The translations under genes and the position numbers were made by a program. From UHGV virus genome UHGV-0160030: 40,988 nucleotides of DNA; one strand, 5' to 3'. The notes beneath the pieces are model-generated. The model worked only from the letters and a program-made list of their open reading frames with translations. It ran no database searches and was not told where the DNA came from. Numbering within the stretch: the stretch's first letter is position 1; every line of letters starts with the position of its first letter. Source of the stretch: a virus. Below, in pieces: positions 1,612 through 17,559 of this stretch.

Positions 1612-4600
1612 TCAGGCACTGCATAATCCTCCGTCCCGACGTGATGACTGCATAATTGACACAACCCTGCTGTCGATCAGATCCACCAGTCCCTTGGCTG
1701 ACTGCGTATCTATCTCGCCATTGCTCCCTTTATTCTGAATACTGATGTGATATACGGGAGAATAAACAAATCCACCGCCACCATTCACATTGCCAATGGC
1801 TCTGACTCCAAGAGAGCCGTCCGCTGCCCGAGTCAGTGGCATGATAGCTTCAGGCCCGGCCTCGCCCATCAGCCCGGCACCTTTCGCAAAAGCAAAATAC
1901 GTCGGGGTATCCACAATGGTGTTACTGTAAGCACTCAGATTTGCCGATGTATAAACACCACCTTTTGCGTTTGCCACTGCACCGGAAAGCCAGTCGCCGA
2001 CTGTACCAAGCCATCCTCCGGCACCGGACATGCTTTTGGAAAGTGACTTCAGCCCGTTAACGATGGCAGCGTTCATCAGAATTTTTGAAACTTCCTGGAG
2101 AATTGAACTCCCCCAGTTTCTCCAGTCCACAACATTTCCGGCCAGTGCATCGGAAATATTTGATACCAGCCCGTCCATCGTGGAAACGACAGCATCTGCC
2201 GCCTGCGAAGCATAATCGGTGGCACTGTCTGCCCAGTTCGTCAGCCCCTCTTTGAGCCCGGCATTCCAGTTACTGCGTAAAGCATCAGCCTTTACATAAT
2301 AATCCTGCTGATCGCTGAGACGCTCTTCCAGATATTTTTTATTCAGCTCTTTCTCCTGTTTCCACAGGGCTTCTTCAATTTCTCCGGCCTGATACTGTCT
2401 CAGTAGCTCGTTATTTTTCTGCTCAAACTCCTGCCGGATGCTCCACATTTCCTGAAGTCGTTCACGCATCCGTGAGCCTTCACCATATCCCAGTAACTGA
2501 GCCTCATTTGATGCTCTGACACTGGCATTACTGTCCGCCAGACTGCTCTCATACGCAGCAAGCTGCTCACGAATCTTTTTCTGGTCGATAAGTGCTGCAT
2601 TCTGCAAAAGCGTTTTTTTCTGCGCTTCTGACAGGGTTGATAATTCGCCCTGACTGACCTGATATTTCATCTTAGCCAGTTCAGTATTCTGCCCTGCCAG
2701 TGCTATCTGTTCTTTTTGCTGTTTAATCAGCCGTTTATAAATATCCTCTGTTTTTTCCGCTTCGGTCTTTTTATGCGCTTTGGGTTTATTTGCCTGGTTA
2801 TTTCGCCATGCATCCAGTGAGTTATTTATATAATTCAGTCTTGCTGTCTGATACGCCTCTCCCACAAATCCGAGATCATCCGCAGCATAACCCAGGCGGG
2901 CACGCTCACGAGCTTCCCCCTTCAGGCGGGACAGAGCCAGTTCGCGCTCGCTGTTATTCAGTGCGGTCTGCTGTTTATCATCCAGGGTTGCCTGTGGTAG
3001 CCGTAACGGTACATTCACCAGCCCCTGTCGCTGCTGAAGTAATTCATTACCGAGCCCGAGAAGGCGATTAAACTCGGTATGCTGCCCATTCATGATCAAC
3101 AGGGACTGATACGCTTTGTTTTGTTCCGCTGCCTGTTGACGGATCAACGCCACCCGTCGCTCCTCCAGCCCGGCAAGCACATCCTGAATGGATTGCGCTT
3201 TGCCCTGCATTTGAGTGAGGCGAGACTGTTCAACTGCCAGTTGATTTGTTGCTTCTGCAAGCCCTTCTGTGACAGTTTTTACCGACGTCATGTGGTTAAT
3301 CATAAAACCGTTATCGGTTGTCCAGCCCGGGTTTGCCAGCACATACTGATAGCCAGCAATTTTTTCCTGTAAGGATTTAATCTTACTTTTCTGCTCGTCA
3401 ATTAACCTGTTTTGCTCCTTCAGTGCCTGTCGCGTCTTTTCCTCATTATCTGACGCTTCAGGAAGCGACATTGCCGACGTTTTCTGGCGAATTTCGTCGA
3501 TTGTTGCGGCATACTGGCGTGCAGATTCTCTGGCCTGCTCCTGATTCTGATACATCGTGTACCAGGCCGCAGCCCCCAGCATGACGAGTCCCGGCACACC
3601 ACCAACCAGCCCCAGCGCGCCACTTAATAAACGACTCCCCACTGACGTAACATTATTCAGCGTTGTCTGTGCCGCTGTTCTGGCCGCAATATTACGGGTA
3701 AGTGACACCTGGGCAGCTGTCAGCTTCGCTTCTGCTGCGGCCTGCCTTTCGGTACCGCGAGCAGCAACAACCGCCTGTTGCGCACGATAAACCGCCGCAC
3801 GCGCCCTGGCGGTTGCTATCTGTGTCCCCCGAAGTTGCACTTCAGCAAGAGCCACTTCGTTTCTGGCTGCAGTAATTAATCCGGCAGTTGCAGATCCAGC
3901 AGACGACGCCATATTGCCAAAATATCGGGCTACCCCGACGGCAACCAGAGCACCAGCAGCGGTTGCCACGGTGTCAATATTGCCTGCAATACCATTCAGC
4001 ACACCGGAGAGCGTCTTCGTCACTCCGCTTGCCTCGTTCGCACCACCAACCCAGGCCATAAAGGCGTTTTCAACTTTGGTTGCAGAGGATGAAACCGTAT
4101 CAGGCATTGCTGCATATTCATCACGCAACGCCCCAAGCTGACTAATCAGTGCAGGAACAACCTTATCGGCGGTCAGTTTTCCGTTATCCGCCATGGCCTT
4201 CAGATCCTTACGGGCAACCCCCATTCCCGCAGCCAGCGCACGAATAACACGATCGCCGTTCTCATTCACCGAGTTAAACTCTTCACCGCGCAGCACTCCC
4301 TGCGCCAGTGCCTGACTGAACTGCGTGATCACCGAACTGGCTTCTGCTGTACTGGCACCGGATAATTTCAGGCCCGTGGAGATCGCCTCGGTGACTTTCA
4401 GTACCTCCTCAGAACTGTAACCATACTCCCGCATGGAAGCTGCAGAACGGGCAAAAAGGCTGGCGTTATCAGAAAACGCCGTCCCCGTTCTCTGGCTGAT
4501 CGCCATTAATTCACGCTGTGATGACTGAAAATCATCACTGGACTGTGAGGCCTGCTTCAGACGGGCATTTACTGAATTCCACTCATCAGCGAGAGAAATA

Positions 4601-14918: not shown

Positions 14919-15386
14919 TTATCTGAGACATTGCTCACGAATGTATAGCTGTGCCCCTTCCAGTTGCTTCTGCATCGTCATCAACCGTTCTCTGAGGGTG
15001 AAATAATCCCGTTCAGCGGTGTCTGCCAATCTGGGGCTGGTTGCATTATCCACGCTGGTGGGTCCGGTGGCTTCACGCACGGCTGCGGAGCAACTGGCAT
15101 TGACCCGCAGGCGCTTACGACCAGCGGCAACATCAGCGCGCAGAGTTTCATTTTCAGCTTTCGCATTGGCTAATTCTCTCGAGTACTTTGCATCGAGCGC
15201 AGCAACATCACGCTGACGCTGCTGCATGTCAGCGATGGTGGCGGTCAGCTGCTTCAGCTCACTGACTTTTTTATCACGCTGTTCTTTGTAGGTGATGGCG
15301 TTATCACGGTAATGATTGACCGCCCACGACAGGCAGACGATGATGCAGATAACCAGAGCATAAATAATCGCGGCGACTCTGCTCAC
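14919..15386 (-). CDS. Rz: Inner-membrane spanin Rz
   Basis: Translation [33 protein letters not shown]... closely matches recalled lambda Rz; GTG start overlapping endolysin stop (GTGA). Confidence 0.85.
14981..15166 (-). CDS. Rz1: Outer-membrane lipoprotein spanin Rz1, embedded in Rz in another frame
   Basis: [22 protein letters not shown]... lipobox and proline-rich tail, matches recalled lambda Rz1; fully nested in Rz. Confidence 0.8.
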
Positions 15387-15916
15387 TGATCTATTCCCCA
15401 ACAGGCTAATGCGCTTTCTTGGTCACGACGAATAACCTGTCCATAGCAGTTATTTGAACGTATGCGGCAATCGCGCCCACCATCTTTTATCCACCAGCGA
15501 ATCGCCTCGCATGCGCCCTTACGATCACCAGCATTCAGCCGCTTATAAAACGTCGATGGAAAACACTTACCGGGGCCAATGTTATAGGGACAAAATGACG
15601 CGATACCCGCTTTTTGTGGTTCGGTCAGTGGTACTTTAATATTGCGCTCCACCCATGCCAGCGCCTTATCACGCTCAATGGCGTTGACCTGGTCGCATTT
15701 TTCCTTCGACAGTTTCATACCGGGAAAAACGGGTTTTCCATCCACCATCGTGGCACCCCGACAGATGGTCCAGATGCCGGAACCATCGCGGTATGCCGTT
15801 GTGTGGTTACCTTCTTTTTCATCCAGAAACTGGTCGAGAATATCAGGCGCGGGCGCACCGACGGCAATCAGTGCCAGAACGGCAGCCGACAGGCCGTATC
15901 TGATTTTTGCGTTCAT
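15383..15916 (-). CDS. Endolysin, lysozyme-like with N-terminal SAR (signal-anchor-release) segment
   Basis: 177 aa; Gly/Ala-rich weakly hydrophobic N-terminus [14 protein letters not shown]; position upstream of Rz. Confidence 0.75.
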
Positions 15917-15979
15917 GGATATTTATCAGGATTTATCGGTTTCTGCCCACGGACAGGTTTATCTGTTCCGGTCAGTGAC

Positions 15980-16330
15980 TTAAGGTTGTGATTCCGGAGG
16001 AGTCTTCAGAGAACCAGTAATTCTTCCTGGTAGCTTTCCTTTGTAGGTTATCCACACATTCTGCGCCTCTAAAATTACGGGGCGCTTTTCCGGCGACTGC
16101 TCATCCCCTTCACATAACCCGGCAGCAACATCCAGGAAGACCTGTCTGATGCTCCTTCTGGCTGCTGCCTCATAAAACCCCAGCGCGGCACCTTCAACAC
16201 GGTCCAGCGAGATGTCCAGGTCAAAAATTTCACCGTCAAAGCGTTTTTTGTCCCGTAACGCTAAAGTTACCGTAACTTTATTCTCAAAATTGCGGATCCC
16301 TTTCACAATCAGTTCATAGTTTTGAGTCAT
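15980..16330 (-). CDS. Hypothetical protein inserted between holin and endolysin
   Basis: 116 aa; ATG 4 nt after holin stop with GGGAGAG RBS; no recognisable motif. Confidence 0.6.
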   Translation of the reverse strand: MTQNYELIVKGIRNFENKVTVTLALRDKKRFDGEIFDLDISLDRVEGAALGFYEAAARRSIRQVFLDVAAGLCEGDEQSPEKRPVILEAQNVWITYKGKLPGRITGSLKTPPESQP

Positions 16331-16334
16331 TGAA

Positions 16335-16550
16335 TTACTCTCCCCGTGCAGCCTTACGACGGTCCTCTCTGATTTTGAAATACAGGTTAGTCAGATATGT
16401 CAGGAAGCCCAGAACCAGACTCCCCAGTACACCAATCGCAGCCCACTGTGACGGACTGACCTGATCAAGCCACTGTAAAAACCAGTAGCCAGCACTGCCT
16501 GCGGAGGTGCCGTAGGCAATGCCCGTTGAAATTTTATCCATGGATTTCAT
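16335..16550 (-). CDS. S: Pinholin (phage 21 S-like class II holin) with dual start motif
   Basis: 71 aa [27 protein letters not shown]...; two TM segments; Met1/Met4 dual start; strong GGAGGTGAGG RBS; the track ORF start at 16649 is an upstream extension. Confidence 0.8.
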
Positions 16551-16990
16551 AGCCTCACCTCCGCAGCGAACGGATGGCGTAGTTATAAGGGGAGCGAAAA
16601 AGAAAGAATGCGCGATTGCGCAATATGGTAACGTCAGGGTATTATCCACTGGCTGAATAGATCACTTCACGTTTTTTGTTCCTTGCCGCCCGTATCCATA
16701 TGCGGGCTTTTTTTTGCATGTAAAAAGGCCCCAACACATGTGCGTGGGGCCTGAGAGTATACATGGTTTCAGTCAACTGCATGGTGCCGGGTGCCTCCCG
16801 GTGAATTCAGTACCAGCACCTGAATCCGCGATTATCCCATATACCTACTCGCTGATTGCCCCTCCGCACAGGGGGATTCACCATGCCAGTTTCTTTTAAC
16901 AAACTCCCCGCAAAACAGACAACTGTCAACCGTCTGAATTGTGAGACATTTAAAAAAAGGCCCGCAAAAGCGAGCCGGGAAAAATAAGTC

Positions 16991-17067
16991 TGGCGCGTTG
17001 TACTGGATTCGAACCAGTGACCGATTGCTTAGAAGGCAATTGCTCTGTCCGGTTGAGCTAACAACGC
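16991..17067 (-). tRNA. tRNA-Arg (anticodon UCU)
   Basis: Hand-folded cloverleaf: acceptor GCGTTGT/ACAACGC, anticodon loop CUUCUAA, T-loop TTCGAAT, CCA encoded. Confidence 0.8.
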
Positions 17068-17080
17068 AGGGTACAGATAA

Positions 17081-17157
17081 TGGACCGCCATCGAGGACTC
17101 GAACCCCGCGCAACCAGCTTCGAAGGCTGGCGCTCTATCCTGATGAGCTAATGGCGG
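17081..17157 (-). tRNA. tRNA-Arg (anticodon UCG)
   Basis: Hand-folded: anticodon stem CCAGC/GCTGG, loop CUUCGAA, T-loop TTCGAGT, 3' CCA; exact 5' end uncertain by 1 nt. Confidence 0.7.
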
Positions 17158-17164
17158 TATGTGA

Positions 17165-17240
17165 TGGTGGCCCTTGCTGGATTTGAACCAGCGACCTGGC
17201 GATTATGAGTCGCTCGCTCTCACCACTGAGCTAAAGGGCC
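17165..17240 (-). tRNA. tRNA with anticodon CAU (Ile2 lysidine-type or Met), resembles E. coli ileX
   Basis: GGCCCTTTAGCTCAGTGGT...CTCATAA...GGTTCAAATCC...CCACCA. Confidence 0.75.
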
Positions 17241-17280: not shown

Positions 17281-17559
17281 TCATCCGTTCTGGCTGACTA
17301 AATCCTGTACTTCCCGAACCGTCTGCTCAAAACGTTCAGTCTCCAGCTCAACGCCAATTGCACGACGCCCGAGCGCCAGTGCCGCTTTCACTGTCGAACC
17401 CGACCCCATGAAAAAATCTGCAATCAGGTCACCCGGACGACTGCTAGCGCTGATTATCTGCTGCAGCATTTCTGCCGGTTTTTCGCACGGATGTTTCCCG
17501 GGATAGAACTGCACCGGTTTATGCGTCCAGACATCGGTATACGGCACCTGCGCCGTCAC
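17281..17559 (-). pseudogene. C-terminal remnant of an N6/N4-type DNA methyltransferase
   Basis: Carries only the C-terminal AdoMet motif (DFFMGSGST) and HPCEKP; the N-terminal half with the DPPY-type catalytic motif is absent; frame opens at GTG just downstream of the Q terminator. Confidence 0.55.

Follow-up and report, generated by a model that had tools for sequence, protein, structure and literature searches.

The closest described relative of the gene studied here is ydfR of Escherichia coli K-12 (b1555, P76160), which belongs to the cryptic prophage Qin and shares with our locus the gene order essQ (holin)–ydfR–rrrQ (lysozyme)–rzpQ/rzoQ. In a full-text search of the literature, a single paper presented real data on this family (PMC13232886, RNA Biol 2026), the other mentions (sigma-S transcription in vitro, a gene-cluster label and a single sentence in a genome comparison) being incidental. 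Residues 1-72 of K-12 YdfR were recovered three times in a bacterial two-hybrid library screen, the full-length protein gave signals with Rne(1-597), and FLAG-tagged Rne(1-598) co-eluted with Strep-YdfR (PMC13232886). The YdfR eluate was rich in DNase-resistant nucleic acid, which was taken as RNA, although the authors could not exclude a contaminant. In the same study, YdfR overproduction left growth unaffected and changed few transcripts, and uninduced K-12 cells yielded almost no ydfR reads. The supplement of a CPRG screen lists the K-12 ydfR deletion among the envelope-defective mutants, together with the ydfU deletion (PMC3879167). Both genes lie upstream of rrrQ in Qin, ydfU even upstream of the antiterminator, and read-through from the resistance cassette or polar activation of the SAR lysozyme gene rrrQ may explain both phenotypes; the ydfR phenotype was set aside as evidence for a role in lysis, ydfU having scored too in that supplement.

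The YdfR ORFs of Stx and lambdoid phages (BP-4795 ORF47, H-19B, mEp460_055 and Stx1a/Stx2c phages) occupy the same position after an S21-type holin gene and carry the same N-domain as the protein described here, with identities of 62-94% over this domain. Most of them also share its C-terminal module. Their C-termini vary, giving proteins of 72, 104, 114, 169, 183 or 263-268 aa, and some of the genes are followed by antisense ORFs.

The window analysed here is the whole 40,988-nt stretch of the virus genome UHGV-0160030, and its lysis genes are encoded on the minus strand (Table 1). An earlier note, made from the letters of this stretch, had reported an extra gene wedged between a pinholin and a SAR endolysin, and the Pfam matches on both sides bear this arrangement out. 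The upstream product matches 'Bacteriophage P21 holin S' (PF04971, E = 8.6e-36) and is 83% identical to K-12 EssQ. The downstream product is a lysozyme of PF00959 whose N-terminus is weakly hydrophobic and rich in Gly and Ala and whose sequence contains E35, D44 and T50. The start of Rz was set following the MS8345 annotation. The gene is indeed an addition to the canonical holin–endolysin–Rz/Rz1 cassette, S and R being adjacent in phage 933W. Its tight coupling to the holin gene and its good ribosome-binding site can both be read directly from the minus-strand junction, ...CGGGGAGAG-TAA-TTCA-ATG-ACT... (in codons, ...CGG GGA GAG TAA TTCA ATG ACT CAA...), where a GGAG core lies 9 nt 5' of the ATG, within the final codons of the holin gene.

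Table 1 Features of the lysis region of the window and of its upstream surroundings
Feature	Positions	Strand	Description	Basis
Three tRNA genes and truncated DNA methyltransferase ORF	16994-17240 and 17281-17559	minus	between Q and the holin gene	
STnc100 (RF02076) match	16716-16915	minus	sRNA family, full-length match	140 bits vs gathering score of 47 (Rfam)
Phage-21-type class II holin (pinholin)	16335..16550	minus	71 aa, MKSMDK..., dual-start motif M1/M4	PF04971
Shine-Dalgarno for the DUF1327 start	16338..16345	minus	GGGGAGAG, inside the final codons of the holin gene	read from sequence
Holin stop	16335-16337	minus		read from sequence
Gap, holin stop to DUF1327 ATG	16331-16334	minus	4 nt	read from sequence
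DUF1327 ATG	16328-16330	minus		read from sequence
YdfR/DUF1327-family gene	15980..16330	minus	ATG start, 116 aa plus stop	ORF list
Conserved DUF1327 core domain	16106..16330	minus	codons 1-75	AlphaFold2 model, K-12 identity, short members
Exchangeable C-terminal module	15983..16105	minus	codons 76-116 (PEKRPVILEAQNVWITYKGKLPGRITGSLKTPPESQP)	low AlphaFold2 confidence, comparison
Spacer, DUF1327 stop to endolysin start	15917..15979	minus	63 nt	read from sequence
AU-rich endolysin leader	15917-15940	minus	GATAAATCCTGATAAATATCC-ATG	
SAR-type lysozyme (R21-like)	15383..15916	minus	177 aa	PF00959, E = 1.4e-24
Rz i-spanin	14919..15386	minus	GTG start overlapping the R stop	PF03245, E = 1.6e-49
Rz1	14981-15166	minus	embedded in Rz	ORF

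A consensus scan, whose site counts were near those of shuffled sequence, revealed no promoter-like or terminator-like site adjoining the gene, and none within the spacer that separates its end from the lysozyme start. Since such sites are missing beside it, the gene belongs to the late lysis-gene transcript. The predicted fold of the spacer RNA is not better than that of shuffled sequence (z = -0.28). The endolysin gene R itself has no Shine-Dalgarno sequence and starts behind the AU-rich leader, which is conserved in BP-4795.

Some features of the surroundings deserve mention in their own right. The STnc100 match, which ends at a terminator-like hairpin, lies directly upstream of the holin gene, much where a late-promoter leader RNA such as lambda 6S would be placed. 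The Q gene, however, is found about 800 nt further upstream, with the tRNA genes in between. The tRNAs, annotated as Arg, Arg and Ile in the identical MS8345 prophage, adjoin a truncated DNA methyltransferase ORF, an arrangement also seen in Stx-type phages, whose stx genes occupy that place. Over 91% of its first 25 kb the window is about 97% identical to Escherichia phage PhiR49_2 (PV340570.1), and the lysis regions are 94.9% identical; PhiR49_2 is a close relative with a different sequence.

The 116-aa protein matches Pfam DUF1327 (PF07041) over residues 1-112, with an E-value of 9.2e-42 and 141.6 bits for a gathering cut-off of 25 bits. The search that the earlier note had suggested, against prophage DUF families found between holin and lysozyme, thus yields DUF1327/YdfR, and the gene was called unknown too readily, as the family is named, very common and includes one experimentally studied member (PMC13232886). 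Close relatives in NCBI are called 'YdfR family protein' or 'DUF1327 domain-containing protein', and the DNA of the gene is 100% identical to that encoding the 'YdfR family protein' WP_000193289.1 in a prophage of E. coli MS8345. This prophage also shares the neighbourhood: Q antiterminator, truncated methyltransferase, three tRNAs, class II holin, YdfR, lysozyme and lysis protein. Both PHROG matches of the protein (406 and 2091) are listed as 'unknown function'. Annotations of this gene, with its family and its position, already exist in thousands of public records.

Megablast matches are present in 4104 of the 5426 complete E. coli genomes, at up to 8 places per genome. DUF1327 was also found in 101 phage records, including H-19B, BP-4795, mEp460 and many Stx1a- and Stx2c-converting phages, and the order holin–YdfR–lysozyme is common to K-12 Qin, BP-4795 and mEp460. 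When one genome from each of 185,579 species was considered, matches were restricted to Escherichia, Shigella and two MAGs. Only 64 clusters were found by HMMER among 1.84 billion representative proteins, so the family is narrow, without a sequence bridge to any known family. A homologue search started from a distant member (P0174) returned 2 proteins only. The 116-aa protein matched no family in an NCBIfam scan, no PDB sequence at E ≤ 10 and no PADLOC defence model at E ≤ 1; its sole Pfam match at E ≤ 0.1 was DUF1327, with no similarity to a described antiholin family. Seven gene calls of 139-187 aa fuse the holin (PF04971) and DUF1327 (PF07041) domains. They are probably frameshift or sequencing artefacts, because a stop codon plus 4 nt separates the two genes.

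The protein has a mass of 13.0 kDa and a pI of 6.3. Its highest 19-residue Kyte-Doolittle mean is only 0.69, compared with 1.72 for the holin and 1.87 (at residue 9) for the lysozyme, so it has no transmembrane segment and no signal peptide, as had been noticed earlier, and it is predicted to be soluble and cytoplasmic. Its first 74 residues are 80% identical and 95% similar to those of K-12 YdfR. After residue 74 the two proteins are unrelated, a 29-residue tail in K-12 (EKVESYLQHQYSFKIENPANKHERPHHKY..) contrasting with the PEKRP...KTPPESQP module of the window. The stop codon of the Qin ydfR overlaps the lysozyme start (ATGA), where the window has its 63-nt spacer instead.

In an AlphaFold2 prediction of the full 116 aa, the N-domain was modelled with moderate confidence and the C-terminus without confidence (pLDDT 34-41). 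Modelled alone, the N-domain reached a mean pLDDT of 90.7 and a pTM of 0.75, with three antiparallel strands (residues 5-14, 18-27 and 34-43) packed on one long helix (50-73). It would be a simple two-layer beta3-alpha unit without a diagnostic structural relative; a Foldseek search of the BFVD viral structures gave no match with E ≤ 0.001. Stand-alone family members of 71-73 aa correspond to this core domain alone. In both of the alignments used, which reach down to members with 31-38% identity, E6, G47, Y53, E54 and A57 are invariant; the same holds for E46 in one of the two. An acidic/aromatic motif, E46-G47-x-x-L50-x-x-Y53-E54, is located at the start of the helix.

The C-termini of the family form a mosaic: some members carry the PEKRP...KTPP module, others coiled-coil extensions (169-268 aa) or nothing, and K-12 YdfR has its unrelated tail; neither K-12 YdfR nor the 72-aa members have the module of the window. 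Among the 55 distinct DNA alleles, divergent pairs have a dN/dS of about 0.25-0.45 (based on pN/pS) over codons 1-75. For the same pairs, pS is 0.15-0.20 in the C-terminal module and 0.49-0.65 in the N-domain. Given this much lower pS, the C-terminal module has had a separate recombination history, with a recombination boundary near codon 75. The Pfam score, the purifying selection and the confident N-domain model establish the ORF as a real protein-coding gene.

The genomic context was compared in 97 Escherichia-type loci drawn from IMG/VR, GTDB genomes, GenBank phages and E. coli genomes. The DUF1327 gene directly follows an S21-type holin gene in all 97, after 4 nt in nearly all of them and after 3 nt in PhiR12_2_star. 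On the other hand, the holin is present in 438 phage records versus 101 for DUF1327, which leaves about 77% of the holin-bearing records without the gene, and in phi458 a 100%-identical holin is followed directly by a different lysin. The DUF1327 gene is therefore optional for lysis cassettes with a phage-21-type holin. In 933W, which lacks it, endolysin R occupies the same slot, 4 nt after S (GGGGAGAG-TAA-GCTG-ATG). The same GGGGAGAG-TAA-NNNN-ATG junction precedes the YdfR gene in BP-4795, as in the window, and Qin has the variant GAGGAGAG-TAA-NNNN-ATG before ydfR, also with a 4-nt gap after the holin stop. Because the DUF1327 gene takes the holin-embedded ribosome-binding site, the endolysin starts behind a leader without Shine-Dalgarno sequence; with its start 63 nt further on, R is translated in a different way. 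The S–R junction is also a recombination hot spot.

No holin adjoins the gene in the three most distant members with an assignable position, each of them known from a single contig, and in each the gene is on the late strand. Tail genes M and L flank P0174 (31% identity), tail genes I and J flank P0171 (38% identity), and P0158 (51% identity) directly follows an Rz gene whose product has its nearest relative in the Rz of a Cronobacter phage. The two tail-cluster loci (L101 and L102) had no megablast match among phages.

In nine of the loci, the two tail-cluster loci included, a longer or stand-alone DUF1327 variant has a convergent antisense ORF of 74-104 aa behind it. The antisense ORFs fall into at least four PHROG families listed as 'unknown function' (2572, 2411, 1853 and 25324), each C-terminal variant of DUF1327 having its own antisense family. 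The phrog_25324 partner accompanies a 72-aa DUF1327 at two sites, between S and R in phage Evi and among tail genes in L101, and the two copies are 61% identical. The window represents the minimal form, with no antisense ORF and the short spacer only. A further variant is found in phiSTEC1575-Stx2k (locus L094, positions 2281-4299), which keeps the holin and DUF1327 genes while a second, unrelated lysis cassette, made up of two holin-like genes and an M15 metallopeptidase gene, replaces the R21-type lysozyme and the spanin. This phage appears to carry two holin systems.

Several scenarios may explain these observations. The one that we tentatively favor, with a probability a little short of even, is that of an accessory late gene standing outside the holin–endolysin–spanin machinery, whose product binds a host target through its N-domain. 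The gene, whose translation starts from the ribosome-binding site at the end of the pinholin gene, would travel as a passenger of the late operon, not as a component of the lysis machinery. Late in infection, the N-domain would bind its host target, which, by analogy with residues 1-72 of K-12 YdfR, would most likely be the catalytic N-terminal half of RNase E and/or RNA, and this binding might then modulate RNA turnover during virion production and lysis timing. The earlier note had offered three guesses (a lysis regulator, a second cell-wall enzyme or unrelated cargo riding late expression), and the last of these fits the comparative data best. Nevertheless, two observations speak against a passenger: the position directly after the holin in 97 of 97 Escherichia-type loci would also be expected of a holin partner, and phiSTEC1575-Stx2k retained the holin–DUF1327 pair when its endolysin and spanin were replaced. 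The link to RNase E was reported in a single paper, for a paralogue whose C-terminus differs (PMC13232886), and the mildly acidic N-domain (pI 5.3) does not point to direct binding of RNA.

The alternative that survives best, although it seems unlikely, is a cytoplasmic regulator of the pinholin (an antiholin or a timing factor) comparable to T4 RIII or P1 LydB. Triggering would be delayed or sharpened by binding of the acidic helix start to the C-terminal tail of the holin, which is basic and cytoplasmic. A soluble protein with an invariant acidic motif would suit this role, and so would the invariable place of its gene behind an S21-type holin, the shared ribosome-binding site embedded in the holin gene and the survival of the pair through the swap of the endolysin module in phiSTEC1575-Stx2k. 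There is also a precedent in T4 RIII, a small cytoplasmic antiholin that touches RNA metabolism by binding ribosomal protein S1 (PMC9409239). Yet the association with a holin, which should be obligate for an antiholin, is not so: most phage records with the holin lack DUF1327, phi458 uses the same holin allele without it, and the distant members sit in tail-gene clusters or after Rz. Moreover, the dual start of the holin already encodes an antiholin of its own, and the pairing of alleles gives no sign of co-evolution between the two proteins, a single DUF1327 allele (at least 97% identical) occurring with holin alleles of 79%, 86% and 99% identity. What stands of the lysis regulator proposed earlier is the constant place beside the holin in Escherichia-type loci; the idea is weakened by the many cassettes with the same holin and no such gene and by the members in tail clusters.

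If the protein itself mattered little, the ORF could serve mainly to space translation, freeing the endolysin from the ribosome-binding site in the holin gene and so setting the holin-to-endolysin ratio. This is improbable, even though the junction used by the endolysin of 933W is used by DUF1327 in the window, R is left behind a conserved leader without Shine-Dalgarno sequence, and the overlap of the ydfR stop with the rrrQ start in Qin indicates coupling. Purifying selection on the amino-acid sequence, the confident fold of the N-domain, the retention of homologues at other genomic sites and the binding of a defined host protein by one homologue (PMC13232886) all count against a mere spacer.

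Equally improbable is a moron active in the prophage state, be it for lysogenic conversion, for defence or as a toxin-antitoxin-type system perhaps involving the antisense genes. As in a moron, the gene is inserted between genes that are adjacent in a relative, 933W having S and R joined by the same junction. The antisense ORFs that follow the longer variants, from at least four PHROG families, and the recurrence of the phrog_25324 partner at two genomic sites (Evi and L101) would also fit. In addition, a CFT073 ydfR probe was preferentially transcribed in vitro by sigma-S RNA polymerase (PMC3141248), and a comparative study placed a 'ydfR' gene cluster among its toxin-antitoxin hits (PMC10575684). 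The copy in the window, by contrast, has neither an antisense partner nor, by the consensus scan and with 4 nt to the holin gene, a promoter or terminator of its own. No PADLOC defence model matched, and in K-12 overproduced YdfR is not toxic and ydfR is almost silent without induction (PMC13232886).

A second cell-wall-degrading enzyme, as the earlier note had also considered, has nothing but its position between holin and lysozyme in its favor and can practically be discarded, as the protein has no export signal, no match to an enzyme family in Pfam, NCBIfam or PDB sequences and, in its 75-residue conserved beta3-alpha domain, no enzyme-like structural match.

The accessory late gene binding a host target, which remains the preferred reading, can be extended to a more general proposal, which we consider rather doubtful: the DUF1327 N-domain might be a portable RNase E-binding module for host takeover, inserted at several points of the late operons of enterobacterial temperate phages (after the holin, after Rz and between tail genes) and combined with exchangeable C-terminal tails and antisense partners. 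If this were true, its position in the lysis cassette would link late RNA turnover to lysis timing, as does the dual role of T4 RIII. Lysis and, in Stx phages, the release of toxin are under the control of the operon that contains the gene. Modulation of either RNase E or pinholin timing, if it occurs, would therefore affect burst timing and toxin release in pathogenic strains and would provide a function for the long-standing y-gene ydfR. The present analysis adds to the existing annotation the domain boundary, a confident model of the N-domain and the separate history of the C-terminal module. It also shows the S-to-DUF1327 junction to be equivalent to the S-to-R junction, places distant members outside lysis cassettes and brings out the pattern of antisense partners.

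Three kinds of known systems can be compared with this gene. The lambda morons bor and lom resemble it in being extra genes between genes that are adjacent in related phages, at a recombination hot spot. Unlike them, the DUF1327 gene is on the late strand and linked to the holin gene in translation, and the scan showed neither a promoter-like nor a terminator-like site belonging to it. T4 RIII, which acts on holin T, and P1 LydB, which acts on LydA, are likewise small soluble proteins encoded with or beside a holin gene. No homology to them was detected, however; most cassettes with the same holin do without DUF1327, and its distant relatives are not beside holin genes. Phage-encoded modulators of RNase E are also known, such as Dip of phiKZ and T4 Srd; we know of no sequence relation between Srd and DUF1327. 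Srd binds the N-terminal half of RNase E and stimulates the decay of host mRNA (cited in PMC13232886). Its source is a virulent phage and its effect on RNA decay is clear, whereas overproduction of YdfR changed few transcripts. Nevertheless, both are small phage proteins, binding to that half of RNase E has been reported for the YdfR homologue of the window gene as well, and the authors of that study themselves liken binders of the N-terminal half such as YdfR to T4 Srd (PMC13232886).
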